Below are positions 6,136-51,840 of a stretch of 64,000 bases of DNA, one piece after another. Made by a program: the position numbers and the translations under genes. Source of the stretch: Waddlia chondrophila WSU 86-1044 (GTDB lineage: Bacteria > Chlamydiota > Chlamydiia > Chlamydiales > CAMCWV01); contig CAMCWV010000004.1 in assembly GCA_945882915.1 (NCBI GenBank), positions 15,643 through 79,642 of the forward strand. The letters are read 5' to 3'. How positions within the stretch are numbered: the first letter of the stretch is position 1; every line of letters begins with the position of its first letter. The notes under the pieces were generated by a model that did no database searches, was not told where the DNA came from, and worked only from the letters and a program-made list of their open reading frames with translations.

Positions 6136-6229
6136 TATTCTGTCCTAAGGTTCATTCGAATGGGCGGTAGTGTAGCAAAAACTCCCGTTTTATACGAGTA
6201 AAGCTTCTTTGCTTGCAAGAGGCACAGGG

Positions 6230-6280
6230 AAATACAAGAACAGGATAGGCAAGATCAGCCTTCGGCTGTCAGGATAAAAA
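6230..6280. repeat. Family E repeat core, copy E2
   Basis: aaatacaagaacaggataggcaagatcagccttcggctgtcaggataaaaa aligns with 48612-48663 (aaatacaagaacaggatgggcaggagccgcctcacggcgggcaggataaaaa). Both contain a central hairpin with a different stem sequence. Confidence 0.55.
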
Positions 6281-7672: not shown

Positions 7673-8482
7673 GTGAAGACACCTGTTGTAACAAGCTCTG
7701 AGCTGAAGACTCCTTGGGGATCTTCCATTCACTACGCAGGTCCAGGTCTTATGGCAGGTCTTATAGAACAGCCGCCTTTGCCAGCGTTTTTCTATTTTTC
7801 GCTCTCTGGACAGGCAAGCTTGACCCTAGACCCCTACAATCAGCCCGTAGCTTTTTTGCTAAAACAAAGCCAGCTATTAAATCGGCCAGTCCGTTGTTAT
7901 TCTCTGAATCTTCCCGGGCATGGAGAGCCAAAGTCATTTGAAGGGGCCATGAAGTTTTGGGCCTCTTCTTTTGCTAAAGAAGACATTATTCAGCTCTTTG
8001 TTAAAGAGGCTATAGAGTCCATTAGCTATCTGATTGATCAAGGGTATGTTGACCATAAACGTATTGCAGTAGGGGGGCTTTCTAGAGGGGGATTTGCCGC
8101 GTTGCATCTAGCAGCAGCAGATCCGCGCATTGGATCTGTGCTCGCTTTCGCGCCGCTACTTGATCTGGGGGTCGTCTCTGAATTTAAAGAGATTAAAGAC
8201 TCTCCGCTTGTTTGCGCGAGCTCTGCAGATCATTTGGTAGAGAAGCTCGTGAATCGGAATGTTCGACTCTATATTGGCAATCGAGATACGTGCGTTGGGA
8301 CAGAGCCTGCCTTTCGATTTATCCAGAAGCTTGCAGAGGCTGCTTATCACTCAAAGCCATCGGTCCGCTCTCCAAAGGCAGAGTTAATTATTGGCCCTTC
8401 TGTTGGGCATCAGGGGCATGGGACGCTTCCCCATGTATTCTTGGATGGAGCTGAGTGGATTATTAACATATACTCCTCGTAG
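7673..8482 (+). CDS. Alpha/beta-fold hydrolase (esterase/dienelactone-hydrolase-like), substrate unknown
   Basis: 269 aa from GTG. Nucleophile elbow GGLSRGG and C-terminal HQGHG. The last codons and stop (atatactcctcgtag) lie inside repeat D1. Confidence 0.6.
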   Translation: MKTPVVTSSELKTPWGSSIHYAGPGLMAGLIEQPPLPAFFYFSLSGQASLTLDPYNQPVAFLLKQSQLLNRPVRCYSLNLPGHGEPKSFEGAMKFWASSFAKEDIIQLFVKEAIESISYLIDQGYVDHKRIAVGGLSRGGFAALHLAAADPRIGSVLAFAPLLDLGVVSEFKEIKDSPLVCASSADHLVEKLVNRNVRLYIGNRDTCVGTEPAFRFIQKLAEAAYHSKPSVRSPKAELIIGPSVGHQGHGTLPHVFLDGAEWIINIYSS

Positions 8483-8540
8483 CTGAAAATGGGAATTTGG
8501 CGCCGTCCAAGTTCCCATTTTCAACTAAGAGAAGTATAAT
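8468..8540. repeat. Family D hairpin element, copy D1 (short variant)
   Basis: atatactcctcgtagctgaaaatgggaatttgg ... ccaagttcccattttcaactaagagaagtataat. Homologous to 35263-35360, 38482-38555 and the half copy at 27775-27804. Confidence 0.85.
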
Positions 8541-8567
8541 AAAATTATAACGCTGTGTTGTTTTGCT

Positions 8568-11894: not shown

Positions 11895-11999
11895 GCCTTT
11901 GCCATCAAGAGCTTCGCTACCGCCCCGCTCCGGGCACGCTAACCAACAAGCGTTAAACAGGTTAAACGTTGACTCAAAGGCTCGCTGTGTAAAGGCCTG

Positions 12000-13750: not shown

Positions 13751-14084
13751 GTTTTGACTAATAAATGACTTGTGAATTGGTCGAGATTACCTAAAAACCG
13801 CTTTTATCTCCAGTGCTTTTCCTAGAAGCTGCCAAGACGTACAGATACCATGCACAAAAATCGAAAAGGGGAGGTTGTCCTAAACAAGCGTTTGCCCTTG
13901 CCATGCCGGCAAAACCGGACTAGTCCACATGCACCGACGAAGGAGGGGTATATGAACTGTTACGCAAAACCTTAATTTATTTGAATTTTTTATTTTACGA
14001 TAAGTGGATGGTTTTTATTGTAAAATTAGTGTGAGTTGGTTTAGTTTTAATTAAACATGACGGATTAAAATCGCGGGTATACTT

Positions 14085-17000
14085 ATGAAAGATCGTTTTG
14101 CTGTTGGTTCTTTTCAAGACAACATGAAACAGCTCTATACCGCCCATATCATCCATAGGCAAGGGGATCCCAATGTCGAGGTTGCGGGGAAAGAGCGGCT
14201 AAAGCGCACCCAGGAAATTAGCACATTTGCTGTTCGCCATTTGATCAAAGCCAAGGCCTTGCAAAGCGGCGATAAGATCGAGGTTGACGAGTACTATAAA
14301 AAGATCCGCGTTTCCAATAAAGAAAAGTTTAAGTCGTTTTCCTTTAAAGAGTTGGGGATTCTCTTTGACAAAGGCTCACCAAAAAGTAAGCATACAGATG
14401 ATGCGTTGCCTCAGGTAACAGTCGAGGCCTTTGCCGAATCCCTTGTCCATAACATCCCTTTTGCCAAGTCTGCTCGCCTTCGCTACCTAAAAGACGCTGT
14501 TCTTGACCGGTATGCCATGTTCTATTTCACTGACTATCTGTGGGATACGTGGAAAATGCTCTCGATGAACGGGCTTCTTTGGAATATGCTCTCTTTGCCA
14601 GAGAGGATTTTTCACTACGGTCTTGCGGCCATCAACCTCTTGGGCTACGCCTATTTTAGCATTAGAGATCTCGCTAAAAACAAGTTCCCTCAGCTTAAGC
14701 GGGAATTCACCATGTGGATGTTCCAGCGAAATAAGGTCCCTCTTTCTTTGATAGATGCAATGGAAGGGGTTATTCAGTTTTTAGAGATGAAGCGGTCACA
14801 ATCAGCTGAGTACGATCAGGTCATCAATGAATACAAAGCCTGCCGGCGCATAGCCCTTGAGCTTGAGAAGATAAAGGGCTGGACAGTGCCTTTTCAGGTA
14901 AGCGGCGTTAAGAGGCTCGCTGAAAGGCAGGGGAAGGCTATTTCGCAGCTTAATGAGGGGCAGCGTCATCTTGTTCCGGGTGGGGTTTATAAAAATGGGC
15001 AGTTCATCCCTTTTCTCTATGAATTTGAACGGGGAATGGGGGAGGAAAAAGATAAGTGCCTTGTCCGTATCATTGATGTTCACGGGACGTTTTCTTCTTA
15101 TCAAGGGAGTGTCCAAAATGAAGAGACGGGAAAGCTAAAGGCGATCCCTTACATTTCGTTTACGATGGATCTTGCTAGAGCCTCTAATGCAGAAGATGTC
15201 TTGCAGCCACTCTTGGAGCTTCAGCTCCCGGCAGCTTATGCGGAGTTTAAAGCGCCAGAGACGATTGAAATGGCAAGAGCGTTCCTCCAAACGGGCCTTC
15301 TTAAGGCAGCCGATAGAGTTGAGTCGTTGCAAGATCATTGGGCAATACGCCGCGTGGGGAACTATGCCATTGTGCCTGCTCTAAAAGGACTTTCTGGAGT
15401 AACGCAGGTCATTTCGAACTGCTTTGGTTTTGCGGATCTTGGATCAGAGACTCTCGAGAGGATCCTGCCAGAGCTTCAGAAGCTTGACTATCCTAAGAAT
15501 CCGGAGCCGGATGATCCGAAGCTTATGAAGCTTGCAAAGCAAGGAAAGGGGGCCTACAAAACTGCCTGGGCGCTTTTGAAGCTCCGCTTCCCAGATCAAT
15601 GTGCCCGTCTGCAATTGGAGCTTAAATATACCGTTCTCTGTCAGCTTTTTGAAAATGAGAAGGCGCTGCTGTCTAAAGATGCAGGTGCTAGAGAGAGGGC
15701 GGTCATTCGGGAGTGTATTCAAGAGTGGGCTGATTTATTTGAAAAGAGCGCTCCAAAGTTATTTGCTAATGACGACATTCAGCTGCAAGAAGTCCACGGA
15801 ATGAATGAGCGGTTGGAGGGGATTCTTCAACAAATTCAAAAGATGGAAGAGGGGCTTGTTCGTCCTGTTAAAGAGCTTGTAATTCCAAAAAGATGTGTAA
15901 CAACCAATCATGGAAGCGTTGGTCTTTCTGCGCTTGCTCATGTCGATGGTTATGCGCCGATCCCTGCTAAATCGCTTGCGCCTATTATTTCAAGAAGTGT
16001 GATTGACTGGGCTCAAGGTCCTTCTGTCTCGGTGGCTGCTTTTGAGGGGTATCTTAAAGAGATGGACGCTCTTTGTAAGAAGGGTGATGATCACAAGTGG
16101 GAGGCCATTGACGTTGCTGCTGTGGATCTTTTGCGGCAGCTGCCAATTCCAACAGTGGGTGAAAGTATAGATCCTGTTTGGGATAGCAAGATGACGCCTG
16201 AGCAAATTTCGCATTGGCAAGAACTTGTGCACAGAGCGCGTGAATACGTCTGGAAGGCAAATCACATAAGGCAGACAGATGGGGTGACAGGGGTACATGC
16301 CGAGGCGCTTGCTAGAAGTGCAGCTGTGAGTCTAAAGCTGGCAATGCGTAATAAAGATGTAAACATGATAGGGCCTGTTGCGGGAATGGACCTGAGTCCC
16401 TTCGAGGCCATCACAGACAACAAGACCTTCTATTTTGCAAGTAAGGAGCAAGAAGATTCGGTGAGGGGTTGTCTTGACTTTATGCGAGAGGTAAATAAGC
16501 TATCTGAAAAAGAGTTCCCCCTGAGTGGGATTCACCTGTTAAACAAATCTTTAGGTGTTGGGGGAATACAAGATTGGAGGGAGGAGAGAGCGCTCTGGAT
16601 ATATGTAGAGGCTATTTACCAGAAGATCCATGGAGTTTTCGATTTTGATTGCGCTCTTAATCCAGCAGAGCGTTTTAAACATTTAAGAGAGGTGTCAACC
16701 TCTCTGGACTACCCTAGGCTTCCTGGAGTTAAGAAGCATCTTTCGACGCTGAAAGCTGTTTTACAGAAGCTTCCCCCAAAAGACTACACGGAGATTGCTA
16801 AGTTAAAGACGCTTCTTGAGCGTTTACCACAGGCATTTGAGTTTACTGGAGAGGATGCTGCTATTGAAGGTAAGTTAAAGGCGCTCAGTGACGAGCTGAA
16901 CTTGTTGCGTGAGCAGCTTAAGATCAAAAAAGACATCCCTCTCACATCCATTGGAAAGATGTACCCTAGAGAGATTTCGCAAGTTACTGGGGGGGAGGCA

Positions 17001-20000
17001 AAGAAGTTTTATGAGCTTCAACAGAAAGCAGAGATTTTAGCCGATTTAGGAGAGAAGGGGTACAACCATCCAGATATCACCCATTTGCGCCTTTGTGATT
17101 TGCAGTTAAAGACAATGCTTTCTAATCGCAACTGCTATTACGAGCGCGGCGTGATGGGGCTTTCTAAAGAAGCAGCCTTTCAAGCTTACGGCATTGCCCG
17201 TGGAGAGGTGCGCCTCGATAAATTTAGCAAAGATTTTGAGGCAACACGCCGCCGGTTCATCTCTTATGCGATGTCTAAAAAAGGGGAGCCTTACTTTTCG
17301 TTTAGAAGAGAGGGGAATACACAATCTTTTATCGACTACCTGGCGAGCTACAAGTGGGGTCTGGATTTCTTTTTGCTCAGTACAGGGCTTTCACTTGGCA
17401 ACACCTTTATGGCCGGTGGAATTAAGGCGCTTTTGATGGAAATTCTTCGGCTGATTTTTTCGTTGGAGTTTTGGGCGTTGGGGGGGATTTTTGGGTCTTC
17501 GTGGTTGATCTACCGCAATATGTATGGGCATGCACTTGTACGTGCTGATGTGATGTGTGAGCCTTATGGGCTCTGTTTGGGGTCTTGGGATCATCATAGG
17601 TATGACTTTGCTCGCAGCCGGGATGCAGAAGGGATTGGTAAGCCCTACGGAGGGTCTGGAGATGATGCTTTCAACCGTACTAGGGTCATAAGGGAAGATG
17701 TCGTTGGATTTCGCATTGGCGCCGATGATTATGATCCTTGGACTGCAGAAAAGACAGAGCAGAAAGTTATTGCAGATGCAGAGAGAATCGGAGAGCTTAC
17801 TCTTGAGCAGTCACGGGATTTGCAAAGAACGCGGCTTAACGCTGCTGAGATTGGGGAAGTCCTTGATTATTACTCAGATAACCCACTTCTTTTAGAAGAA
17901 GGTCCCCATCAACACCTTTTAGAGCGCGCATTGACTAGATATGGAAAAATGACCGAAGCGCTCGGTAGGCAGCCAGAGCTTGTCGCCCGCTTTAATCGCT
18001 TTTTCTCTAAGCAACTTAACTGGGCGCGCATGGGGCAAAAGGTGCAGGAGCAGCTTTTTCTGGCCCGCTTGTCAGAGCGTGTTAACACCTATATTTCAGA
18101 TAATGATGTGGCTAAAATCGTTTTTCACGCCCTGCCAAAAGAAGGTGGCGAGGCTGAGATTGGTACTGCTGTTTTGCGGGTGTTAGGCGAATTGGAACGC
18201 GACCAGACTCTTGGAAGGAGCCGGTCTTCGCTCAATACAGAGCTTCTTCGGAAGCTTCAGGAAAATGCGCGACTGCTTGCAGATCAAACAGGTCGATTAG
18301 CCAGGGAAGCTAAAGAGGCTCGATCAGCGCTTTCAGTTCGAATAGCTGAATTAGAAGGGGAAATTCGAAGAGTTCTTGCCGCTCAAGCCGCTCAAACCGC
18401 TGGAGGCTTTCAAATATATAGCAGGAACAAACCTGATCCACTAGAGGCTGAATTTGCAAGTCTTCGACTCAAGCAGGAAGATGCAAGCGCTCGATTAGCA
18501 CCTGGAGTTGCAAGTGCTCAATTAGAGTTTGTGAAGGGGCTTGATAGGTTTGGCGATGATATAGAAGGGCTTTCTAAAGAGATGCTTGAAGATCTCGAAA
18601 ATTCTAAGCTTCAAGAAGCGGTTATCGCGCTACAGGATCTTCTCAAGAAAGTAAGAGAAGGGATTCCAAACCGCCTTCTTTCAAAACAGATTCTCGACCA
18701 GTGCGTCAAGCAGTGCCGTGATGGGACCGCTGCTTATTTAAAGCATTTAGTCCCCATCCACGCCCATATCATCGCCGCGTACGCTTCTTATTCTGAAGCA
18801 GAGTTGCAATCTCTGGGTACAGAAGAGCTCCTTAGCGTTATCAAGAGCTTCTTTGTTGTGCGCGGCGCCGAAGAGGACGCAGCACATCGCGATCCTGTGT
18901 TTAATGATAGTGTCAATGAGGCTGTCTTAAAGCTGATGCCTATTTTTAAAGGACGTCTTAGTGATGATGCAACGAAAGAGCCACTCCTTAACGCTATTTT
19001 ACGAGCCGTTCACCCCGAAGCTACTGATCAAAAATGGGAAGGGACATCGACCTTTTTTACCTGTAAAGATTGGGAAATCGACATTGCCAACGGGCGTGTT
19101 TACCATCAAGGTTACTTAAAAACAGAGCTCCCCTATTCGGTTCTAAAGAATGAGGGTGTTCTTCGTCTTTTTGGCGGAGGGCCCATTCCTTGCAAGCTGC
19201 AGTGCAGCCAGAACTCTTATAATAAGAGTCAGGTGAGAAAGTTTACTTTTGAGAAAGGGGGCGATCACTACTCCATTATTCAGAGAGCTGACGAGTCGAT
19301 TGCCATCTACAAAGAGATCCTTAATATCCATACAGGCGTTCAGTCTTGGCATCAATGGATTCATCAGGAGATGCAAGGAGAAGAAAGTAAGGTGGCCTCA
19401 GCAGAGGACCGGGCGGGAAGAAGAACCTTGCCTAAGCCTGTGACAGATAACATTTGCTGGGTCGATTGTGATCAGCCCGCACACTTCCTTATTTGTGATG
19501 AGGGAGGAAAGGAGCTTTATAGGGGCACTTTGAGGGGGAAGAGTATTTATAGCTTGTACAACCTCAAGTACCCAGAAGGAGAAAACACCGTTCTTCGCGT
19601 TTGGGGTAATAAATCTTCACTTGAAGCGTTAACACGCATCGCTCCCCCTGAGCAGATTGAAGTGTTGGGGACGGCGGAAGGGGCTCCTAAGACCATTGTT
19701 TATCATAATTACAATCAGTCATTCTCTATTGATGAAGAGGGGATTGCTCATAGCGGAAATGATGCCCACTTTGTTCTTACCGACAAGCAAAAGTTGAATG
19801 TGAGGGGGCTTGGAAGCCACTTTCAGCACTTCCAAGTCGTTAAGCACGATGAAGATCAGATTGAAAGGGTGCTTATTCCTGCCAGTGAGATTGCCCAGAC
19901 AGTAAATTCTTTGAGCGCGCAGGCTGTGGGAATGGGCGTTGATGCGGTAACAGGGATTGCGACAGGAGGGAGGACCCCTCAGCAGGCCCTTGGTAACATG

Positions 20001-23000
20001 CAAAAGCAGCTTGCAAATGTTGCTAAGACAGAGCTTATTAAACAAGGGCTGTGGCTTATATTTAAGACCTATATGGGCAGTCGCCTCAGCGCGTTCTTTG
20101 GCCCAGACACCGATTCTAAGGCAGAGACTCCCGAAGTGACTTTCAAATACCAGAGTCAAAGTGACCTTCTTGCTTTTGAGATAGACCCTTATGACAGACG
20201 TTTTAAAACAAAGAACAAAGAGTCGTATCTCTATTTGTCTTACATGTTCTTGGCTTACGGAAAGCACAAGGAGGCGCTCTATTATTTAAAACAGGCAAAG
20301 ACCTCTCTTGCTTGGAGCGATAAAGCCAAAGACTATATTCGGTTAATGCAACAGTGGCCAGATGACTCTGCTGCTTCCAAGGCATTTAAGCTGCAGCTTG
20401 AGTTGATGTTCTGCGAAAATCAGATGAGCTTGCTCGGAGATGACCTTAAGAAAAAAGACACCTCCTTTAAGGGGATGCGCACCTACATTACGCTTATGGG
20501 ATTGCAGGTCCGTTATGAAGAGTATCAGGAGATTGAAAAGAAGCTGCCGGGAGATCTTCATTTAACTAGTGGTGATAAACGCGTTTACATGGAGCTTTTA
20601 TCGCAACTGGCTACCATTACGGGGCAAAAGCCAAAGCCTACAGTGCCAATCATCCCTCTTGCAGAAGAGACAGTTGATCCTTCGTCCATTACCCCTCCAC
20701 ATCTGGACTTTGGGGGAAACCCGTTGCTTGATATGCGTAAAAAGTTTAGTAGCACCCTTTATTATGCCCAGGAGAGCAAAAGATCGAGCAGAAGCACGCT
20801 CACTACTAAAATCAAGTTTGGCGATGAGGGATTCAAGGTTAGAGCGGGAAGGGAATTGATTCGGAACTTCGATGTTTACTTGAACATTGCAACAACGAAA
20901 AATCCTGGAGATAAAGAGTTTGATGATCTTTGCAAGCGGCTTGATCTTATGGGAGATAAGATCAAAGAGGTGCAAATGGCTAGATGGTATTTGCATGTTG
21001 CAACGGAGCTGCGAAGGAAAGGGGAGGGTCTTTCTTCTATAAAGCTCCCTGAATTTAAGTTTGAGTATGAAACTAAAAATCAGAGAGATCAGAGAGCAGG
21101 AGTTTTGCCTTCTGTAGCACAGCCTGGAGGATTTTGGGAAAAGTCACCGGCGGCTAGTCCTTCTGGGATGTTTTTGGGCAGAGTTAAGGATTCGTTTTCA
21201 TGGGCGTGGGATAGGATAAAGAAATACACGTTTTGGCAGGCTTATAGTCTGGTTTCTACAAGTGAACTTGACAGCAGATATCGCCAAGAGCTTGTAGATG
21301 ATATCGATAAGGTGTGCGGCGAGTTAGATAGCCTTGCCCGGCATAACGGCATTGGCAGTGTGAAAAAGCGCCCTCCACGTGGCGGGGCACGCCCTGTAGT
21401 TGAGGCTCAATCAGAAGTTCAGCTTCTTGCAGGGAAGGCAGAAGCACGCCGCAAGCTCCAAGAGCGGGCCGCGGGTAACAGCAATCTGGGGGGCGTTATC
21501 CAGGGACTTGGAGGGCTTGATAGCCTCGGAGGGTTCCTTCAACAGGTGATCTCTCAAGGAGCTCACGGAATTACCTCTATTCAGCAGATGATCCCTGTCC
21601 CTTTTAGACCGCTTCTTTCTGGAAAAACTGAAACGCTTCATCGCATCGAAGAGGCCCTTGACGGTATTTTAGAAAAAGCAGAAGAGGTTCTTGCTAAGAT
21701 CCCCGGAAGCACGCGAGATCAAAAACGAGATGCCCTCATGCAATGGCTAAAGATGCAAGTCAGCGGGCTTGGAGATAATCCGACAGCAAAGATGATTTGG
21801 GCGGTCACAGGGCCGGCGCTTGGGATTGACTTAGAGGTTGCAGGGCTCATTGTAGAGGCCTATTCCGAGTCGATTATTCAGGGGATTCTTCTTGTTCTTG
21901 ATACCCGGACCCCCTCGGCTGTTAAGCGGCACTGGCGAGCTGCAATGGACAAGGAAATTGACCTTCATTCAGAGCACCTTAAGCGGCTTGATGCAGTTGA
22001 AGAGGCCCTTAACAAATGCGTTAAACAGAAAATCCCGAGTTGGGAGGGGATCTTTACAACGCGGGGTGTAGAGATGTCTCGAGAGGATTACTTCCATCTA
22101 GATACGGGGATTCCTAAACTTGCTGCAGATGCTTTTAAGAAGGAGTGGAGATTTGGGCTTGACAAGGTCGCACGGGGCGAGGTCGCACGGGGTGAGTTGA
22201 ACCCTGAAAAAGTGGAGATTCAGGTGATACGTAATAGGGTAAGGACAGAGCTTGGCGATTACCTTTGTGGGAAGAGAACGCTTCCTCCTAAATGGCTCTT
22301 TAATCCAGAGGCGAAAGATCTTTTTGAGTCGGTCATTTTCCTTCATGAACAGTTGCAGGAGCGTTTGCCGGGCTTTTTATGTCCTGTTATTGTTGCTCAA
22401 GAAAAAGAACTCTTATTTGATGTTCTTAAAACGGCATCTTTAATACCTCAAGAGGTGCAATTAGAGTGCATCACAATTGAACAAGTCAATAAATACTTTG
22501 AAAATTTAAAAACCTCTTGGACAGGCCCAGGGGGGACCATCCCTCCACATCGCAAGCGTGTGCTCGATAGAGAGTGGACCGACGCACAGCATACGATTAC
22601 TGAAAAGAAGGCGAAGGCTCAGACAGAAGGTTTTAAACTTCCTATTCCTAAAACAGCAGTAGAGGCGCACAGTCAGCTTGGTGAAATTAAAATTCTTCGC
22701 GATCAGGCGATTGAAAAGGGGCAGGAGCTGCAGAAGAAAGCAGAAGACTCTCGGACGAAGGCACTTCGTCTTATTAATGACCCACCACTAACGCCTCTTA
22801 AACAGGCCTATCAAGATCTTCATGTTCTTGTAGATAAGCATGAAGAGGTGTTTTTCCCTGAGGTGAAGCGTTTGTGGCTGCAGGGAAGGCTTTTTGATCT
22901 GTGCAAAAAGAATCCTCAGCTAACACACGAAAATTTAGCTGAGTTAGAAGGGTTTGTTACAGAGCACCTTCAAGCAGGTAATGAAGCCGTTCAGGCCCAG

Positions 23001-26000
23001 CGCCTTTGCCGTGCTTTCCAGTCTCTTGAAGAAGGGGTGCAGAAGGTAGTTAATCCAAAAGGGCTCTCTAAAGAGAAGCGGGAGCAGCTCCCATTGAAGA
23101 TTAAAGAGGCTCACTCTTTGATTACGCAGCAGCTTTCGTTGGCCCGTACCTACAAAGTGGACTCTTCACAGCTTTATTCACGCGCTTGTCTGATGATCGA
23201 GAATGTCAAAGGGTATGTTCTTCGCCCTGAGCAGGTGGAGGTGTTCTACGAGCTTTCTAGAGACCCTACCAAGGTGAAGCAGCTCATTATGGGGTCGGGG
23301 AAAACAGAGGTGGGGAACGTTGTCATCATGTTGATGTTGGCAATGGGGAACAATCTCCCACGCTGGATTGGGCCAAAAGCGCTCTTTAATGTTAATAGTA
23401 GAGATCTTGACAGCATTTGTCCTGAACACTTTGGGCAAGAGCTTTATCGGTTTGAATTCGAAAGGAACATGCTCAAGGATGCCGCCTCGGTACAGAAGAT
23501 CTATCACAGAGAGATGGAGACGATGGCGGGCCGTGGGTTTGCCATGAACACGCGGGAGAGCATGCAGTGCGCCGAGCTCTACTGGCTAAAGAACATTGAG
23601 GATCTTGAGAAGGCTCCTGTGGAGGCAACCGAGGATCTGGAGTCGCAAGACAAATATTTGACAGAGCTTTTGAAGATGTGGCGTAAACGAGGGTACATCC
23701 TCAACGACGAAGTCGATAGCGTAAACGATCCTACCCACCAGTACATTTTTGCGTGTGGCGCTTCTGAAAAGCTCGGCAAGCAGCCGATTAAGATCAATGC
23801 AGCACTTAATATGATGCGTTTGATTTTGAAAAACCAAGAGTGGAAAGAGCGGCTAAAAATCAAAAACAACCTCCAGCAGAACCTCTCTGAAAAAGATCAT
23901 GAAGAGCTGCGGCTGTTTGTTGCTAATTGCTTTTTTGATGAGTGTGTCACGAAAGGAAGTCTTAAAGAGGAAAATCGTGAAGAGTTCATCCTTTTTGTAA
24001 CAGGGGACCAGCGTACTGTTAAGATCCCTGCGTGTGTGACGCTCTCTCCAGACAAAGAGTTTTTTAAGGAGGTGGCTGTTGTTAAGACGCTGCTTACGAC
24101 AATTGTTGAAGGAGCTTTGAGCAAGAAAGGGAACGTCAACTACGGCCCTGAGATGTTTGAGGAGATGCAGAATGGGAAGAAAGTCTTCAGGAGAGGTCGC
24201 TGGGTTGTTCCTTATATTGCCCATGGAAAGCAAAGGCCAGGAAGCATCCACGGTAATGAGCTTGAAAGGATCATCTTCCACATCTTGAGTTATCTCCAGC
24301 TGGGGGTTACTTTCGATCAAATTAAAGAGAGGCGTGACACTCTTCAGGCTGAGGCAATTACCTTGAAGCAGTCAGAGCAGTACGCGCCGGGCGCGACCTC
24401 TCCTGAGCAGCAGTGGAGATCTTACGGCTGGACAGGAGAGGTCGCGCTTCTTGATGTTACAGATGAAGATCTTAGAGGTGTTGTAGAAACCCTCAACAGC
24501 ACAGAGGGGGATCTTGAGGAGGAGTCAATCCTGAAATACTTGGAGCAGGTGCTTCTTCCTGAAATGGAAATTCACGGCCAGACACTGGAAAGTAATTCTC
24601 AGAATTTTGGTGATCAGAATAGGTTCTTTGCGGGCTTCTCTGGAACTGTCGGCAAAATCTATGCCTTGAATGATAAGATCACTGAAAAGAGCAAGACGGC
24701 AAGGCTTGGGACAAACGGGGAGACTCTTGAGGCGATCCTTCGAAAGAGCAATAACGGAATGGATGAGGTTGACACCTATGGGGGTGAGACCGCAGAAGAG
24801 CGTGTTAAGGAGCTTTTAGAAAAGTGCAAGGGAGCCAACTTCTTTGTCGATGGAGGGGCGGCGCTTGACTGTACCGATCCTCAGGAGTTTGCTGCTCGCT
24901 GCGCTGAGGAGCAGTCTAAAATTGAGATCAGAGATCAAGCGCACAAGATTGTAGGGGTTGTCTTCTTCAATAAGGAAGATAGCTGGGTTGTTCAGTTTGT
25001 TGGGCAAGATCATCCAACGCCTGTTGAGGATGTAGGGGGTGTGGCTCTCAAGAACTTATTCACCCTTTATGACCATGGACACCGTATTGGGGCGCATAGG
25101 CTTCAAGATGCTTCAGCAGAGTTTGTGGCAACTGGGGGCGCTAAGACCGATTTTGAAGATGCCGCTCAGAGTTGGGCCCGTGCAAGGGGGCTTTGGACGA
25201 AAAAACAGAAGCCTAGACACCTTGTTTCAGATGAGACCAGAAAGCTTATTAAGGGCAAAGAGAGCAAAGAGCCTTTACTTGTCGGGGAGTATGTGGGGCA
25301 CCTCTTTGCCAACCAGGCAGATGAAGAGGCAAAGGCAAATTACAAAGCCTCGCGTCACAAGATCATGAATATCATGCGCAGCGCTCTTATTAGTTCACTT
25401 CTTGACGCTCCTGATGCGTACGCTAGAAGAGATCTTCTTAAGTGCTACAAAGAGCATCTTTTTAAGACGAGCTCAGAAAATTATATAGCGATGCTTCAGG
25501 TCGAGAAGATGGATACGCCAGAGAATGCGTTAAAAGCACTTATCGAAGCTGAGCAGGATAAGATCACGGGGATTTTGGGCGCTCTTCCAGAGCGTCTTCT
25601 TGGGGGGCAAGAAGGTCTTTTTAAGGCTGCATATCAGCGGCTTGAGGCCTATAAAGAGCCAAGTGCTACGGGAGATACTCCAGGGATTCTCCCGCCAGAA
25701 TTTTATCCTGAAAAAGTGCCGATGCACGAGTCTTCTGCCCAAACAGAGGTTACTGTTGAGCAAGAGCAAGAGGCCGAGCAAGAGGCAGAGGAGGAGCTTG
25801 ACCTCGAAACCAAGAAGCAGGTCGCCCAGAACAACTTTAAGAGCAAGTGGAAACCTTGGCTTACAACTGGAAGGTCATCTCCACTACTGTATAGATTCAT
25901 GTCTGAGACAACTTCGCAGCTTGATAGCAAGCTAGGGGATGAGTTTAAAGGGGTATTTGATAAGCGTGTGCTTTTCTCTCCAAATATGATTCCGCAAGGT

Positions 26001-26528
26001 GAAAGAGCTTTGTGGGGATACCAAAAGCCGATACATGATCTTTTGGTGGTATATGGTCTTTCTGGAAAAGCGTGGACGGTTATTGCCTGTGATGCCCTAG
26101 ACAAAGACCGGGAGCTAGAAGATCTATTTAAAAAGCACAAAGACCCTGATATTAAAATAGGGCACTACTCGATGCGTGAAAAGAAGATGCAGAGATGGAG
26201 TAACGCTTTTAGTGATGAGGAGCTTGGATCAGAAGGTTTCTTGAGGTTAACGGTGCAGTGTCACTTCTTTAATGCTGAGACTCATTACCAAGGGATAGTT
26301 GAAAAGGATTCTCGCAAAAACACAGAGTACTCTGTTCTTCAGAAATGGTTAAGCGAGCACCCGCATGACAAGATGATTAAGCTCTATAAGAGCTCGGCTG
26401 CAGTCTTCCGCGACAAAGCGCAGAAGTACGAGAAGAGTGTTCTTAGTAAAGGGTTTGCCTCCATCAAGAGCGTTCAAGAGGCCGAAATTTCAAGGCGTCA
26501 AGCTGAGCGCCTCTTAAAAAGGCCGTAA
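14085..26528 (+). CDS. Giant (4147 aa) multidomain protein of unknown function with a C-terminal-third P-loop NTPase module; candidate secreted/inclusion-membrane protein
   Basis: A single uninterrupted 12.4-kb frame. Hydrophobic blocks at nt 14508-14670 and 17358-17520. Walker A GSGKT at 23292-23306 and DEVD at 23706-23717. Acidic run EQEQEAEQEAEEE near the C-terminus. The start has no obvious SD. Confidence 0.85.
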   Translation: MKDRFAVGSFQDNMKQLYTAHIIHRQGDPNVEVAGKERLKRTQEISTFAVRHLIKAKALQSGDKIEVDEYYKKIRVSNKEKFKSFSFKELGILFDKGSPKSKHTDDALPQVTVEAFAESLVHNIPFAKSARLRYLKDAVLDRYAMFYFTDYLWDTWKMLSMNGLLWNMLSLPERIFHYGLAAINLLGYAYFSIRDLAKNKFPQLKREFTMWMFQRNKVPLSLIDAMEGVIQFLEMKRSQSAEYDQVINEYKACRRIALELEKIKGWTVPFQVSGVKRLAERQGKAISQLNEGQRHLVPGGVYKNGQFIPFLYEFERGMGEEKDKCLVRIIDVHGTFSSYQGSVQNEETGKLKAIPYISFTMDLARASNAEDVLQPLLELQLPAAYAEFKAPETIEMARAFLQTGLLKAADRVESLQDHWAIRRVGNYAIVPALKGLSGVTQVISNCFGFADLGSETLERILPELQKLDYPKNPEPDDPKLMKLAKQGKGAYKTAWALLKLRFPDQCARLQLELKYTVLCQLFENEKALLSKDAGARERAVIRECIQEWADLFEKSAPKLFANDDIQLQEVHGMNERLEGILQQIQKMEEGLVRPVKELVIPKRCVTTNHGSVGLSALAHVDGYAPIPAKSLAPIISRSVIDWAQGPSVSVAAFEGYLKEMDALCKKGDDHKWEAIDVAAVDLLRQLPIPTVGESIDPVWDSKMTPEQISHWQELVHRAREYVWKANHIRQTDGVTGVHAEALARSAAVSLKLAMRNKDVNMIGPVAGMDLSPFEAITDNKTFYFASKEQEDSVRGCLDFMREVNKLSEKEFPLSGIHLLNKSLGVGGIQDWREERALWIYVEAIYQKIHGVFDFDCALNPAERFKHLREVSTSLDYPRLPGVKKHLSTLKAVLQKLPPKDYTEIAKLKTLLERLPQAFEFTGEDAAIEGKLKALSDELNLLREQLKIKKDIPLTSIGKMYPREISQVTGGEAKKFYELQQKAEILADLGEKGYNHPDITHLRLCDLQLKTMLSNRNCYYERGVMGLSKEAAFQAYGIARGEVRLDKFSKDFEATRRRFISYAMSKKGEPYFSFRREGNTQSFIDYLASYKWGLDFFLLSTGLSLGNTFMAGGIKALLMEILRLIFSLEFWALGGIFGSSWLIYRNMYGHALVRADVMCEPYGLCLGSWDHHRYDFARSRDAEGIGKPYGGSGDDAFNRTRVIREDVVGFRIGADDYDPWTAEKTEQKVIADAERIGELTLEQSRDLQRTRLNAAEIGEVLDYYSDNPLLLEEGPHQHLLERALTRYGKMTEALGRQPELVARFNRFFSKQLNWARMGQKVQEQLFLARLSERVNTYISDNDVAKIVFHALPKEGGEAEIGTAVLRVLGELERDQTLGRSRSSLNTELLRKLQENARLLADQTGRLAREAKEARSALSVRIAELEGEIRRVLAAQAAQTAGGFQIYSRNKPDPLEAEFASLRLKQEDASARLAPGVASAQLEFVKGLDRFGDDIEGLSKEMLEDLENSKLQEAVIALQDLLKKVREGIPNRLLSKQILDQCVKQCRDGTAAYLKHLVPIHAHIIAAYASYSEAELQSLGTEELLSVIKSFFVVRGAEEDAAHRDPVFNDSVNEAVLKLMPIFKGRLSDDATKEPLLNAILRAVHPEATDQKWEGTSTFFTCKDWEIDIANGRVYHQGYLKTELPYSVLKNEGVLRLFGGGPIPCKLQCSQNSYNKSQVRKFTFEKGGDHYSIIQRADESIAIYKEILNIHTGVQSWHQWIHQEMQGEESKVASAEDRAGRRTLPKPVTDNICWVDCDQPAHFLICDEGGKELYRGTLRGKSIYSLYNLKYPEGENTVLRVWGNKSSLEALTRIAPPEQIEVLGTAEGAPKTIVYHNYNQSFSIDEEGIAHSGNDAHFVLTDKQKLNVRGLGSHFQHFQVVKHDEDQIERVLIPASEIAQTVNSLSAQAVGMGVDAVTGIATGGRTPQQALGNMQKQLANVAKTELIKQGLWLIFKTYMGSRLSAFFGPDTDSKAETPEVTFKYQSQSDLLAFEIDPYDRRFKTKNKESYLYLSYMFLAYGKHKEALYYLKQAKTSLAWSDKAKDYIRLMQQWPDDSAASKAFKLQLELMFCENQMSLLGDDLKKKDTSFKGMRTYITLMGLQVRYEEYQEIEKKLPGDLHLTSGDKRVYMELLSQLATITGQKPKPTVPIIPLAEETVDPSSITPPHLDFGGNPLLDMRKKFSSTLYYAQESKRSSRSTLTTKIKFGDEGFKVRAGRELIRNFDVYLNIATTKNPGDKEFDDLCKRLDLMGDKIKEVQMARWYLHVATELRRKGEGLSSIKLPEFKFEYETKNQRDQRAGVLPSVAQPGGFWEKSPAASPSGMFLGRVKDSFSWAWDRIKKYTFWQAYSLVSTSELDSRYRQELVDDIDKVCGELDSLARHNGIGSVKKRPPRGGARPVVEAQSEVQLLAGKAEARRKLQERAAGNSNLGGVIQGLGGLDSLGGFLQQVISQGAHGITSIQQMIPVPFRPLLSGKTETLHRIEEALDGILEKAEEVLAKIPGSTRDQKRDALMQWLKMQVSGLGDNPTAKMIWAVTGPALGIDLEVAGLIVEAYSESIIQGILLVLDTRTPSAVKRHWRAAMDKEIDLHSEHLKRLDAVEEALNKCVKQKIPSWEGIFTTRGVEMSREDYFHLDTGIPKLAADAFKKEWRFGLDKVARGEVARGELNPEKVEIQVIRNRVRTELGDYLCGKRTLPPKWLFNPEAKDLFESVIFLHEQLQERLPGFLCPVIVAQEKELLFDVLKTASLIPQEVQLECITIEQVNKYFENLKTSWTGPGGTIPPHRKRVLDREWTDAQHTITEKKAKAQTEGFKLPIPKTAVEAHSQLGEIKILRDQAIEKGQELQKKAEDSRTKALRLINDPPLTPLKQAYQDLHVLVDKHEEVFFPEVKRLWLQGRLFDLCKKNPQLTHENLAELEGFVTEHLQAGNEAVQAQRLCRAFQSLEEGVQKVVNPKGLSKEKREQLPLKIKEAHSLITQQLSLARTYKVDSSQLYSRACLMIENVKGYVLRPEQVEVFYELSRDPTKVKQLIMGSGKTEVGNVVIMLMLAMGNNLPRWIGPKALFNVNSRDLDSICPEHFGQELYRFEFERNMLKDAASVQKIYHREMETMAGRGFAMNTRESMQCAELYWLKNIEDLEKAPVEATEDLESQDKYLTELLKMWRKRGYILNDEVDSVNDPTHQYIFACGASEKLGKQPIKINAALNMMRLILKNQEWKERLKIKNNLQQNLSEKDHEELRLFVANCFFDECVTKGSLKEENREEFILFVTGDQRTVKIPACVTLSPDKEFFKEVAVVKTLLTTIVEGALSKKGNVNYGPEMFEEMQNGKKVFRRGRWVVPYIAHGKQRPGSIHGNELERIIFHILSYLQLGVTFDQIKERRDTLQAEAITLKQSEQYAPGATSPEQQWRSYGWTGEVALLDVTDEDLRGVVETLNSTEGDLEEESILKYLEQVLLPEMEIHGQTLESNSQNFGDQNRFFAGFSGTVGKIYALNDKITEKSKTARLGTNGETLEAILRKSNNGMDEVDTYGGETAEERVKELLEKCKGANFFVDGGAALDCTDPQEFAARCAEEQSKIEIRDQAHKIVGVVFFNKEDSWVVQFVGQDHPTPVEDVGGVALKNLFTLYDHGHRIGAHRLQDASAEFVATGGAKTDFEDAAQSWARARGLWTKKQKPRHLVSDETRKLIKGKESKEPLLVGEYVGHLFANQADEEAKANYKASRHKIMNIMRSALISSLLDAPDAYARRDLLKCYKEHLFKTSSENYIAMLQVEKMDTPENALKALIEAEQDKITGILGALPERLLGGQEGLFKAAYQRLEAYKEPSATGDTPGILPPEFYPEKVPMHESSAQTEVTVEQEQEAEQEAEEELDLETKKQVAQNNFKSKWKPWLTTGRSSPLLYRFMSETTSQLDSKLGDEFKGVFDKRVLFSPNMIPQGERALWGYQKPIHDLLVVYGLSGKAWTVIACDALDKDRELEDLFKKHKDPDIKIGHYSMREKKMQRWSNAFSDEELGSEGFLRLTVQCHFFNAETHYQGIVEKDSRKNTEYSVLQKWLSEHPHDKMIKLYKSSAAVFRDKAQKYEKSVLSKGFASIKSVQEAEISRRQAERLLKRP

Positions 26529-26594
26529 GCCCCTCTAACCGCTCTAAATAAAAATCGCGGAAGCGAAGCTCTTTGAGTTGCCGCAAAAATCAAA

Positions 26595-26684
26595 CAGGGG
26601 CCTGAAAGGTCCTAATGTTACAGCGGGAAGCCTTCCGCTAACGCTTCGACCTCAGGCTGTAACATTAGGACCTTTCAGGCCCTT
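26595..26684. repeat. Family B palindromic element, copy B1 (short variant)
   Basis: caggggcctgaaaggtcctaatgttacagc ... gctgtaacattaggacctttcaggccctt. The arms match B2 at 51575-51789. Confidence 0.85.
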
Positions 26685-26706
26685 GTTCAATTAATGTGTT
26701 CAGCTC

Positions 26707-26982
26707 GGCATTGCCCGCGTAATTGCAATTGCAGCCTTACAGGCTGCATGGGATATATTCGCTTATACCCAGGGCGCTGCCCTGGGCTATGTGCATTTTC
26801 AGCCCTTCAGGCTGAAGCTGGGGAGCTGAGGCGCTTTTAGTTAAAGCCTTTTGCATAAAGTCTCAGCCTGTAAGGCTGAAAATGCACACAGCCCAGGGCA
26901 GGCGCCCTGGGTATAGGCAAATATATTTTACGCAGCCTGTAAGGCTGCTACTCTTAGGGGGCTGTAATTATGCAATAATGCC
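26707..26982. repeat. Family C nested palindromic element, copy C1 (full length)
   Basis: Termini ggcattgcccgcgtaattgcaatt / ctgtaattatgcaataatgcc. Local hairpins gcagccttacaggctgc, cccagggcgctgccctggg and agcccttcaggct, each mirrored in the right half. Homologs at 55650, 63076, 50189 and 61065. Confidence 0.9.
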
Positions 26983-27128
26983 ACTCAGCTCTCCTTCCCT
27001 TAAATTTTGTCAAAAAATAGATGGTTTTTCTCCCTCTAGCGCCCTGGGGGAGATTTTAAAGTTCCTGAGGCAAACGCCGATAAGAGTAAATAGAGATTTC
27101 TGTCTACTTTGAATTAAGGAATTAAGCC

Positions 27129-27773
27129 ATGAATCAACCTGATCGTTCAACACCTACTCTAAATCGAAAAGACTACCTGATGATTCTGGTTGCTTTTGGC
27201 ATTGCCTTTGCCTGCACGTACTCTCTTGGCGGGCCCTTTGCCAGCGGAAGCTACCTCTTTAATCAAATATTCATCTTCGCTGTTGGTCTTCCTGTTGGGA
27301 TCCTGCTCTTTAGTGCGGCTATGTTAATGGGTCCAGGGCTTGTGATCAACGATGCGGTTACTATGGAAGATTCCGAGTTCAAGAAAGTGCTTAAAGAAGC
27401 AAGGTCTCGTTTGGGTAAGGTTCGGCTTGTGGTCTCTTATGATGTAAAGCCCACTACAGGGACTGTGTGGCATTTAACTAACGCAGATAGAGCAGCTTGG
27501 ACAAACGCTGTGTTCTTAATTGAGCGGAGTATTAATGGTGAGAAAGTGACCGATAAGCACCTTTTGGGTGTGGTAGAGCCTGGGATGCGCCTTCTGATTG
27601 AGAGCTCACTTCAAGATAGCGAGCAGGCTCATTGGAGAGTCTTAGTCGCGTGCTCTGAGGGGCGTAGTTTGGAATTGCCGAAGAAAGCACTTAACCAAAA
27701 TGATTTTGATAAATTGATAACTGTTCATACAAAAAAAGAAAAACGAATAGAAAACCAGACGTCAGAGACGTAA
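27129..27773 (+). CDS. Small membrane protein with bilobed hydrophobic N-terminal region (Inc-like), unknown function
   Basis: 214 aa. SD-like aagga upstream. Hydrophobic stretch YLMILVAFGIAFACTYSLGG...IFIFAVGLPVGILLFSAAMLMGPGLVI, followed by a soluble domain. Confidence 0.6.
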   Translation: MNQPDRSTPTLNRKDYLMILVAFGIAFACTYSLGGPFASGSYLFNQIFIFAVGLPVGILLFSAAMLMGPGLVINDAVTMEDSEFKKVLKEARSRLGKVRLVVSYDVKPTTGTVWHLTNADRAAWTNAVFLIERSINGEKVTDKHLLGVVEPGMRLLIESSLQDSEQAHWRVLVACSEGRSLELPKKALNQNDFDKLITVHTKKEKRIENQTSET

Positions 27774-27774
27774 A

Positions 27775-27804
27775 CTATACTCCTCTTAGCTGAAAACTGG
27801 AATT
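27775..27804. repeat. Family D half copy (D2, left arm only)
   Basis: ctatactcctcttagctgaaaactgg matches the left arm of D1/D3. No matching right arm follows. Confidence 0.6.
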
Positions 27805-28350
27805 CTATAATTTTTTGAATGGTTGCGGAAAAGGTTGGGTTGATCCTATAGTTCTAGACTAGGGTGACTTCATAGGTCACAGCTGGGAATGTTAAGGACG
27901 CTCCATGATACATCATTTTAATGCGTTATCGCGTCCTCTCCCAGTAAAAAAATTATCAAAACGAACACTTCGAAAGGGTGTCGTTCGTGTAAAGAGTTGG
28001 ATAGTAGTCGGATTCGGTATTTTTAGCCTTTTAAGAGGCATTTCCCCTTTTAAGCTTAGAGCTGTGTAAGAGTTTCCGGGCAAGTGGTAATCAGTTCCTT
28101 CAGAGCGTAGTTAGGGTATTTCAATTTTTAACTCGCGGCCTGTTGAATAAAAAGATTTTTGGTACGGCGCGCAACGCATGATTATACATAAGGAAAACTT
28201 TCTTCATCATTCTAAGCGCTCCTCTGGATCTATCATGGGGATATCCATGGAAATGCCACTAGAAATATCATTAGGGTCTAGACTTTTGTGACTATCAGCA
28301 ACGCTCAGTACACCAACGCATAGCCTTTCGTCAAAACACAGGTTGACGAA

Positions 28351-35262: not shown

Positions 35263-35360
35263 ATATACTCCTCGTAGCTGAAAACGGGAACTTGAACGGC
35301 GCCAAAGCCCCGGGGCTTTGGCGCCGTTCAAGTTCCCGTTTTCAACTACGAGGAGTATAT
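35263..35360. repeat. Family D element, copy D3: 98-bp near-perfect palindrome
   Basis: 49-nt arms atatactcctcgtagctgaaaacgggaacttgaacggcgccaaagcccc / ggggctttggcgccgttcaagttcccgttttcaactacgaggagtatat. There is a single mismatch (C opposite A). Confidence 0.95.
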
Positions 35361-35387
35361 GTTTAATATCTGTTGGTTAATGTGTTC

Positions 35388-35568
35388 GGAGTGAGCGGGG
35401 CGAACTCTTTGGAGTGCAGGGACTTGTCCTAGCTTTCATTAAGCGGGACATGTCCCGCTTAAGACACATAGGTATGCTTGCTAAGGTTCAGAGGGCTCGA
35501 CATGTCGAGCCCTAATGAAAGCTAGGACAAGTCCCAGCACTCCAAAGAGCTACGCTACCGCTTGCTCC
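35388..35568. repeat. Family A nested palindromic element, copy A2
   Basis: Outer arms ggagtgagcggggcgaactctttggagtgcagggacttgtcctagctttcatt / aatgaaagctaggacaagtcccagcactccaaagagctacgctaccgcttgctcc. Inner palindromes ttaagcgggacatgtcccgcttaa and agggctcgacatgtcgagccct. Confidence 0.9.
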
Positions 35569-35632
35569 TTAAGCGGGGCCTGAGCTAAACGTTGTTAATC
35601 ACGCAGAGGCCCTTAAAACGCGGCCTTTCCCC

Positions 35633-48521: not shown

Positions 48522-48555
48522 AGGCTGCCTAAAAAACACCAAAGCGTGAGAGAGG

Positions 48556-48721
48556 GAATTAAACGCAAAGACGTAAAGTAGCAAAGACGCAAAGAAATAC
48601 AAGAGAAAGAAGAAATACAAGAACAGGATGGGCAGGAGCCGCCTCACGGCGGGCAGGATAAAAAACAGGATAATGGATTTTTCTCTCTGCCCTGTATTCT
48701 CTGCGCCTTTGCGTTTAATTC
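48556..48721. repeat. Family E palindromic element, copy E1
   Basis: Imperfect inverted arms gaattaaacgcaaagacg...caaagaaatacaagagaaagaag / ttctctctgccctgtattctctgcgcctttgcgtttaattc. The core is shared with 6230-6280. Confidence 0.65.
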
Positions 48722-48746
48722 TTTCTTTTGCTTTGAGTTTGCTGAC

Positions 48747-50188: not shown

Positions 50189-50262
50189 GGCGTTGCCCGC
50201 ATAATTGTAATTGCAGCCTTACAGGCTGCTACTCTTAAGGATCTATAATTATGCAACAACGC
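50189..50262. repeat. Family C minimal derivative, copy C4
   Basis: ggcgttgcccgcataattgtaattgcagccttacaggctgctactcttaaggatctataattatgcaacaacgc. This is the two C termini plus one hairpin, with the whole interior missing. Confidence 0.8.
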
Positions 50263-51558: not shown

Positions 51559-51574
51559 CCCGCAAAATTCAAAT

Positions 51575-51789
51575 AGGGGCCTGAAAGGCCTTAATATTAC
51601 AGCCCAGGTCGAAGCGTTAGCGTAAGGCCTGGGTAAGACGAAGTATTCAATCTGAGTCCTGTAAGGACGGTAGAAATTGAAGTTATTAACTATGCCGTCC
51701 TTACAGGACTCAGGGGTTTATTGCATTTTACCCAGGCCTTACGCTAGCGCTTCGGCCTGGGCTGTAATATTAAGGCCTTTCAGGCCCCT
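51575..51789. repeat. Family B nested palindromic element, copy B2 (full length)
   Basis: 62-nt arms aggggcctgaaaggccttaatattacagcccaggtcgaagcgttagcgtaaggcctgggtaa and its complement, with 2 mismatches. An inner palindrome gagtcctgtaaggacgg...ccgtccttacaggactc lies at 51653-51712. Confidence 0.92.
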
Positions 51790-51840
51790 GCTTAATTTTT
51801 GAGGAAGCTTCAAAGTCTTGCCTGAGCAGAGGCTCTAAAT

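Follow-up and report, generated by a model that had tools for sequence, protein, structure and literature searches.

Environmental chlamydiae are usually described as repeat-poor apart from IS elements. In other bacteria, several kinds of short palindromic repeats are known with which the repeats analyzed here can be compared. IS-derived MITEs, among them those of the IS5 family, IS903 group, are short, non-coding, multi-copy, intergenic sequences with terminal inverted repeats (TIRs), a target duplication of fixed length, and internal deletions. The Correia elements of Neisseria, ERIC/IRU of enterobacteria, and RUP of the pneumococcus are intergenic palindromes of 100 to 300 bp with long hairpins; they are often co-transcribed with their neighbors, occur in full-length as well as internally deleted or expanded forms, and have promoter, IHF-site, and RNase III features, and Correia and RUP duplicate TA. 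The REP/BIME/REPIN systems of proteobacteria consist of nearby extragenic palindromes, placed head-to-head or tail-to-tail, with defined linker motifs and RAYT partners. REPs are imperfect palindromes of 20-40 bp with a GTAG or CGTC tag at one end (PMC3733652). The BOX elements of Streptococcus pneumoniae combine conserved ends with variable internal modules, including tandem boxB copies, and the Rickettsia palindromic elements (RPEs) are palindromic families spread in an obligate intracellular bacterium, often inserted in frame into genes.

Here, we describe four main families of palindromic repeats, A, B, C, and D, in chromosomal DNA of an uncultured Parachlamydiales member. The window, the whole 64-kb stretch of DNA that was analyzed, has a typical gene content, including RNase G, an Aas-like fusion protein, an insulinase, a GroEL paralogue, and a Mur ligase. 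Downstream of a giant gene, ~70% of a 600-bp spacer (26529-27128) is repeat DNA, made up of an A-family stump, a shortened B copy, and a full C copy. We consider it likely that mobile, non-coding palindromic elements piled up separately in this spacer, a tolerant intergenic site, and partly decayed, and that the spacer is not one modular unit.

Among the described systems, the IS-derived MITEs come closest. Family C is likewise short, non-coding, multi-copy, and intergenic, has TIRs and a 9-bp duplication, includes internally deleted copies, and has ends that begin with GGC and resemble the IS903 inverted repeat. However, its interior is a long imperfect palindrome with three small hairpins per arm and no obvious deleted IS, no partner IS or transposase was seen in ~76 kb, the duplication is recognizable in only two of the four copies, and the left end diverges more. 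Correia, ERIC, and RUP elements are similar in size, location, and hairpin formation, but C duplicates 9 bp instead of TA, sequence similarity is lacking, and for their promoter, IHF-site, and RNase III features there is no counterpart evidence in this uncultured host. With REP/BIME/REPIN systems the window shares extragenic palindromes close to one another, head-to-head or tail-to-tail, families that share a spacer, and GTAG on some stems, whereas its elements are long and TIR-bounded, its linker is at chance level, and one family has 9-bp duplications. As in BOX, conserved ends enclose a variable interior (a single hairpin in C2, one and a half arms in C3, the complete set in C1 and C4), but this variation consists of deletions within a palindrome and not of tandem copies, and BOX has no comparable signature of TIRs and target-site duplication. 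The RPEs share the host life style and the spread of palindromic families; all copies described here are intergenic, though, and there is no sequence relation.

Palindromic repeat families and their setting

The four families were identified by self-comparison of the window (Table 1), with E-values of 1e-9 to 1e-100 for the family matches. All copies are intergenic, and of the intergenic DNA, which totals 7.3 kb, they occupy ~2.1 kb (~29%). At gathering score, the curated RNA families of Rfam 15 matched only a tRNA in the window, and the matches in the spacer were sub-threshold ones to generic miRNA-type hairpins. Scanning with C 20-mers yielded one chance match and one related match (L005) among genome contigs, and two chance matches and one related match (L011) among metagenome contigs, both of them collections without the window's own genome. 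Viral contigs scanned for B and A gave no match, a distant blastn search of a plasmid collection returned one chance match only, and no description of MITE families in environmental chlamydiae or Chlamydiae was found in the literature searched. Since neither Rfam nor the plasmid collection nor a paper provided a counterpart, the families appear to be previously undescribed members of an already known element type.

Table 1. Positions of features in and around the spacer and of the repeat families in the window
Feature	Positions	Strand	Description
A-family palindrome, outer-arm remnant (solo arm)	26557..26579	+	Starts 28 nt past the stop codon of the 4147-aa ORF
B1	26581..26698		118-nt internally deleted copy of the B palindrome, from a four-arm alignment
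"Linker" TTAATGTGTTC	26691..26701	+	Last 8 nt of B1 right arm plus first 3-4 nt of C1 target duplication
C1 target-site duplication, left copy GTTCAGCTC	26698..26706	+	7/9 identical to 26983-26991
C1 left terminal inverted repeat GGCATTGCCCGCGTAATTGCAATT	26707..26730	+	Shared by all four C copies at their ends
C1 body	26731..26948		Three-hairpin unit, 46-nt centre, unit again in reverse
C1 hairpins	h1 26731-26747, h2 26768-26786, h3 26798-26816; reverse unit 26863-26879, 26892-26911, 26932-26948		Perfect stems of 7-8 bp
C1 right end	26949..26982	+	Last 18 nt, read inwards, are GGCATTATTGCATAATTA; 13/18 identical to the IS903 inverted repeat
C1 target-site duplication, right copy ACTCAGCTC	26983..26991	+	ACCCAGCTC in three other assemblies
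76-aa ORF, probably spurious	26882..27112	+	Starts in C1 right arm and extends into unique DNA
Unique DNA 5' of the 214-aa orphan gene	26992..27128	+	No repeat matches; aaggaattaagcc before the ATG at 27129
Comparison locus	35263..35579		D3 35263-35360 (98-nt palindrome, 98% complementary), 27-nt spacer with the 11-mer, A2 35388-35579
C2	50180..50272		75-nt mini copy 50189-50263 plus perfect 9-bp duplication CCGCTTAGT
B2	51559..51809		Full-length 250-nt B palindrome, directly after a stop codon
C3	55650..55861		212 nt; one arm shortened by deletion between h1 and h3; flanks 4/9
C4	63076..63356	-	Full 281-nt copy, orientation opposite to C1; flanks 4/9
Family A	2667-2885, 35388-35579, 43823-44026; solo arms at 11.9 and 26.5 kb		~200-nt palindromes with CTCGACATGTCGAG mini hairpins
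Family B	51559-51809 (full); 26581-26698 (B1)		B1 lacks the inner 132 nt of B2
Family C	26707-26982 and 63076-63356 (full); 55650-55861; 50189-50263
Family D	8458-8548, 35263-35360, 38463-38561; half copy 27775-27806		~100-nt hairpins

On one side of the spacer is a 4147-aa ORF that contains a DUF3638 domain, and on the other a 214-aa orphan membrane-like ORF, for whose product no homologues were found outside its own species. The best non-self matches of the RNase G are ~75% identical and are named Parachlamydiales or Protochlamydia. These closest relatives have none of families A, B, C, and D, and the giant ORF and the orphan gene are also absent from them, so they hold no orthologous spacer. 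In one relative, rng sits almost directly after yceD, which marks the whole block from the giant ORF through the gap to the orphan gene as lineage-specific. The MAG GCA_947446165.1 and several assemblies from ENA and Logan represent the same species, and between strains the gap is kept: two independent assemblies are identical over its whole length, and in a third, which includes the right half, 2 SNPs were seen. A SNP between assemblies at 26985 falls in the right copy of the C1 target duplication.

C1, given as 276 bp in the preliminary description, is exactly that long, and the window contains three further members of its family. The layout of C is left end, h1, h2, h3, centre, h3', h2', h1', right end; in C1 the hairpins appear as small-hairpin folds and as the inverted repeats I14 and I20. 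The copies are small (75, 212, 276, and 281 nt), dispersed, and intergenic, and they differ by deletions between hairpins, the shortest, C2, having retained a single hairpin between its left and right ends. No transposase gene was found in C, and the sole ORF touching C1 is without a family match. The same arm is 92% identical across copies, whereas complementarity between the arms of a single copy is 81-87%, and this difference fits an amplification of the C copies from an asymmetric master copy.

That ORF, of 76 aa (26882-27112), had been thought to lie wholly in repeat DNA. Only its first 101 of 231 nt (44%) are inside C1; for the other 130 nt no further copy was found in the window, where they are unique, and a Pfam match to the ORF is absent.

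B1 proved to be real. The interval 26595-26684 originally assigned to it is the palindrome core, and homology to the family spans 26581-26698. Its two parts, 26581-26624 and 26630-26692, are 89% and 82.5% identical to 51560-51603 and 51736-51797 of B2, respectively. As DNA, B1 folds with -39.3 kcal/mol (z = -10.3). At neither of the two B copies, nor at any A copy, were matching flanks indicative of a target duplication found under any boundary tried.

The outer-arm fragment of family A that had been noticed at 26563-26578 is also present: gcgaagctctttgagt is located there, inside a 23-nt match (26557-26579) in which GCGGAAGCGAAGCTCTTT-GAGT aligns with the A consensus GCGGTAGCGAAGCTCTTTGGAGT. 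An nhmmer profile of the A arm did not report solo arms at E ≤ 1, and therefore Smith-Waterman alignment with shuffles was used for them. The local score of 26557-26579 is 18, compared with 10.9±1.6 in shuffled gaps, and 2/1000 shuffles reach 18. Other gaps that contain no A copy score at most 12 against the A consensus, the exception being the spacer 11895-11999 (score 20, 0/1000 shuffles), where a second solo arm lies at 11900-11928; the same site in another assembly (L017) carries an 82-nt mini-A palindrome.

Comparison of strains shows how such arms can originate. At the site of A1, two other assemblies (L017 and L018) have only GCTGTAGGAGCGAGCGAAGCGA and GGCTCCTACAGC, a 36-nt hairpin in which the element's outer ends are joined, the 176 nt between two GGCTC repeats having been deleted. 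Most of an A element has thus been lost at strain level while the flanking genes were kept. A palindromes collapse within the species to mini hairpins and single arms, and because such collapses are seen between strains, the 23-nt arm at 26557-26579 is best read as a remnant left by deletion of the rest of an A palindrome. Two other origins of the arm were considered. That B1 split an older A element gained no support from in silico removal of B1 and C1, after which the score was 19 instead of 18 and the alignment no longer than before. An assignment of the fragment to the B terminus was not adopted, as the right flank of B2 aligns at ~50-60% and the other two B arms are without it.

Terminal repeats and target duplications of family C

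All four C copies are bounded by TIRs, GGCRTTGCCCGCATAATT on one side and GGCNTTGTTGCATAATTA on the other (GGCRTTG...CATAATT). C2 is flanked by CCGCTTAGT on both sides (9/9), and the flanks of C1 agree at 7/9 in the same register; the chance probability of such matches is ~4e-6 for C2 and ~1e-3 for C1. In three other assemblies, the right duplication copy of C1 has one more mismatch. The flanks of C3 (TTAAACAAG and TTATTGATA) and of C4 (AGAAGAATG and GAGAGGAAG) agree at 4/9 and are apparently decayed or rearranged. With TIRs of its own and a 9-bp target duplication, C1 must have arrived by a separate transposition event. Judged by its sequence, C1 is a 276-bp MITE whose insertion duplicated a 9-bp target at the edge of B1.

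The ends of C provide a lead to the enzyme. Compared with the IS903 inverted repeat GGCTTTGTTGAATAAATC, read from an IS903 copy on an E. coli plasmid (L014), the four C right ends match in register at 13-14/18, with P ~3e-5 per right end before correction for the choice of IS, and the left ends match at 9/18 without gaps. A control scan for the IS903 inverted repeat found 21 sites of at least 13/18 in the window versus ~8 in shuffles. The similarity is weak by itself and would be meaningful only through its in-register position at the element tips, in combination with the 9-bp duplication. IS903B reportedly makes 9-bp duplications (PMC9769513, PMC13618097). The TIRs and duplications together make it well supported that C is a MITE mobilized by a DDE transposase whose staggered cut spans 9 bp; on whether its source belongs to the IS5 family, IS903 group, we are about evenly divided, and we treat this as a lead.

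No transposase was present among the ORFs scanned in the window and its flanks (~76 kb). Likewise, no empty site was found for B1 or C1, as all strains carry both or their contigs break there, and contigs around C2, B2, C3, and C4 either contain the element or end in it.

From these observations we propose the following course of events. Separate palindromic elements would have accumulated in a tolerant spacer and then partly decayed, with C1 inserting at the B1 edge and duplicating 9 bp of target there. C may have been moved in trans by an IS5-family, IS903-group DDE transposase encoded elsewhere in the genome, which is suggested by the similar ends and the same 9-bp staggered cut. The short derivatives of C and B could have arisen via slippage or recombination between internal hairpins. 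In a transcript shared with the giant gene, if there is one, the spacer would form the two long hairpins predicted for the 600-nt gap as RNA and could affect RNA 3'-end stability, presumably as a by-product and not as the reason for the spacer.

Shared linker, element adjacency, and alternative readings

The preliminary description had regarded the spacer as a mosaic of modules joined by a recurrent 11-nt linker, and hence as a modular BIME-like structure rather than the result of independent insertions. The 11-mer TTAATGTGTTC is indeed present at both places where it had been seen, 26691-26701 and 35377-35387, and has exactly two occurrences in the window. Its recurrence is nevertheless at chance level, and it is not a module. 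Allowing at most 1 mismatch, there are 2 matches versus 0.83 expected, and 18/100 shuffles give at least 2. Exact 11-mers are common to 19 position pairs in different spacers outside the repeats, 7 of which extend to 12-mers, and concatenated unique intergenic DNA contains 15 shared 11-mer pairs, compared with 10.9±4.6 in shuffles. The 11-mer is absent at further D-A junctions in the neighboring 7 kb (L015), and it was found once in an unrelated chlamydial contig (L012). In addition, the four-arm alignment of B extends the B1 right arm to ~26698, where the left copy of the C1 duplication begins, so that 26691-26701 comprises the end of B1 and duplicated C1 target and leaves no free linker. At 35.3 kb, the 11-mer is part of the 27 nt that separate D3 from A2, which starts with GGAG.

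What stands of the mosaic is that dispersed families meet at different loci. For the comparison of their order, 2 B and 4 C copies were available in ~76 kb of genome (window and flanks). Each family also occurs alone, and the B+C adjacency was seen once among these copies. A simulation that distributed the 15 elements and fragments randomly over the 21 spacers, with non-repeat length as weight, gave two or more spacers with at least two families in 96% of runs and a spacer with at least three families in 54%. Co-occurrence is thus reproduced by random placement, and together with the TIRs and 9-bp duplication of C1 and the chance-level linker it speaks for independent insertions against a modular BIME. 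REP/BIME membership of the gap fails on unit size and linker motifs, and the few adjacencies seen in ~76 kb give at most a hint of recurrent order.

Some features nevertheless hint at non-random clustering or shared sub-modules. The A arm, B1, and the C1 duplication follow one another at distances of 0-1 nt. Contacts between D and A exist at 3 of ~8 sites each, with junctions of 0 to 27 nt, where independence predicts ~2 in the ~76 kb seen. The 7 kb that adjoin the window on its left (L015) contain an A copy continuing into a D half-copy (16686-16881), and in a complex block at 17850-18040 D ends are joined directly to A ends (…GGAGTATAT|TTAAGGAGCGAGC…), the abutments being at 17920/17921 and 17953/17954. 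Furthermore, the hairpin core CCT-KWM-AGG is common to B and C, and of the 19 times it occurs in the window, 15 fall within elements of these two families. These signals would fit an insertion preference beside existing hairpins or sub-modules of common descent. A BIME built on linkers is not revived by them.

The same features might be taken to indicate a chlamydial REP/BIME-like system, in which hairpin modules in varying orders, with linkers, depend on one protein, either a RAYT-type HUH transposase or a host factor. Apart from the core common to B and C and the direct D-A abutments, this reading can draw on the three-hairpin unit of C, which recurs in two other contigs, both of lower G+C and one of them a Chlamydiota MAG, where clear C-type ends are missing, and which in L011 is arranged head-to-head, not tail-to-tail. 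GTAG stands at the stem foot in D and in the right-hand C hairpin, but it is found on only 1/6 C hairpins and is often TTAG in D; such tags are too sparse to serve as evidence of REP membership. The elements, moreover, are 75-290 bp long and have TIRs of their own, and C has 9-bp target duplications, which are not known from HUH/RAYT transposition. With a linker at chance level that is missing from other junctions, a B+C adjacency seen once only, and no RAYT gene among the ORFs scanned in ~76 kb, we consider this reading unlikely. A broader version of it would make the ~85-nt three-hairpin module (GCAGCCTTACAGGCTGC, CCCAGGGCnnnGCCCTGGG, and a third stem) and the CCT-KWM-AGG core a Chlamydiota-wide REP/REPIN-like system with one recognizing protein. 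The third stem of the module is kept through compensatory change, and the module is present in other Chlamydiota-like contigs of different G+C. We give this version little credence as well; if true, TIR-bounded C would be only one vehicle of such a system, and spacers like 26529-27128 would be its BIME-like arrays.

A role in gene expression would offer another reason for the hairpins to be kept, be it as a terminator, attenuator, or RNA-stabilizing 3' structure of the giant gene or as a leader of the orphan gene. The predicted fold of the 600 nt is much stronger (-308.9 kcal/mol) than that of shuffles (-185.8±7.1; z = -17.3), although palindromic repeats by themselves produce a strong fold. 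A stop codon lies shortly before every A copy and arm in the window, and the three full copies sit between convergent genes; B2 and several D copies begin directly after stop codons. C copies, however, also lie between divergent genes (50.2 kb and 55.7 kb), and the conservation of the gap between strains is set against the strain-level loss of most of an A element with retention of the flanking genes. Neither a hairpin-plus-T-run terminator nor a consensus promoter was found in 26400-27250, and no Rfam family scored at gathering level. As such a function would in any case be secondary and would leave the TIRs and target duplication unexplained, it is a doubtful explanation of the spacer, but a secondary role of the A copies at 3' ends is possible, considering their positions. 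An artefactual mosaic, produced by the assembly, or a resemblance due to chance is far less probable still. Metagenome contigs often break at these repeats (L003, L007, L008, and L019-L023), but the agreement between independent assemblies described above and the E-values of the family matches argue against it.

Palindromic repeats in a chlamydial genome

Separate insertions followed by partial decay are thus the reading that we prefer for the spacer, and its conceptual weight is small: the spacer looks like an ordinary MITE nest, and neither the BIME analogy nor the shared linker stood up to testing. In practice, repeats of this kind break metagenome assemblies and create spurious ORFs such as 26882-27112, and they could serve as strain markers. 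For the biology of environmental chlamydiae, the finding is that ~29% of the intergenic DNA of 64 kb consists of palindromic repeats, one family of which has a clear transposition signature, and that strains of one species differ by palindrome collapse.

A hairpin core and a three-hairpin unit

A small hairpin core, CCT-KWM-AGG (CCTTACAGG, CCTGTAAGG or CCTGAAAGG), is common to repeat family B and to family C, a MITE with terminal inverted repeats and an interior of three small hairpins per arm, with the second arm reversed. In the 64-kb window, 15 of the 19 occurrences of this core lie inside B or C elements. The three-hairpin unit of C was also found in two further contigs, L005 and L011, both of lower G+C (see table). 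L011 carries two such units placed head-to-head with a 61-nt spacer between them, which is the opposite of the arrangement in C, and the pair shows no clear ends of the C type. Compensatory changes set the third hairpin apart (TAGCCC...GGGCTA versus TCAGCC...GGCTGA). Within the window, the spacer preceding the Rieske gene shows a weak, isolated likeness to the left end of C (…gcactgcccgcataatcc…) at 61048-61080, which could represent a solo C end or a chance match.

Positions of core hairpins, three-hairpin units and family D hairpins
Feature	Sequence	Position	G+C
CCT-KWM-AGG core, examples in B and C elements	window	26601, 26671, 26735, 26867, 26936, 51658, 51699	
Three-hairpin unit	L005 (Chlamydiota MAG JBEPVL01)	100-198	41.6%
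Three-hairpin units	L011 (Ga0206882_1332)	1930-2157	45%
Family D hairpin D3	window	35263-35360	
Other family D hairpins	window	8458-8548, 27775-27806, 38463-38561	

Assembly breaks, further repeats and a putative island

Contig ends of short-read metagenome assemblies of the same species (L003, L007, L008 and L019-L023) are located inside C or B copies. Assemblies are fragmented by B/C repeats, and this fragmentation may account for the absence of the species' repeats from the genome collection.

Beyond the repeats assigned to families A to D, the window has a small intergenic pair at 6229-6280 and 48612-48664 (88% over 33-52 nt) and an intergenic inverted repeat with 47-nt arms, forming the palindrome 48551-48726. 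Inside a 1,661-aa ORF (38779-43764), the 68-nt stretches 40342-40409 and 40720-40787 each match another place in the window and are probably mutual repeat partners.

The genes yceD and rng flank a block made up of the 4,147-aa ORF with its DUF3638 domain, the gap filled with repeats and the 214-aa orphan gene (window 13751-28350); in a relative (L013, 8904-10001), the yceD-rng distance is only about 1.1 kb. This block looks like a lineage-specific island.

Families D and A: mosaics, strain differences and gene context

Family D hairpins are similar to REPINs in hairpin shape; D3 is a 98-nt palindrome with 98% arm complementarity. Their stem foot is GTAG/CTAC, often TTAG, and they tend to begin directly 3' of stop codons. 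Complex D/A mosaics were observed in L015 at 16686-16881 and 17850-18040, some 5-6 kb to the left of where the window begins. There, one A copy continues into a D half-copy, and a separate block has the order D, A outer arm, D end, 25-nt mini-A and D, with D ends joined to A ends without a spacer.

The site of A1, the A copy at 2667-2885, is polymorphic between strains. Two other assemblies of the species (L017, 10803-10861; L018, 2805-2863) have only a 36-nt hairpin, in which both outer ends of the element are joined, and lack 176 nt of A1, a stretch flanked by GGCTC direct repeats. In another strain (L017, 1714-1798), the counterpart of the solo A arm at 11900-11928 is a full 82-nt mini-A palindrome, indicating a 56-nt deletion in the window strain.

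Each of the window's three full A copies (2667-2885, 35388-35579 and 43823-44026) lies between convergent genes, with both flanking stop codons 0-60 nt away. Such placement would suit a bidirectional 3'-end structure.
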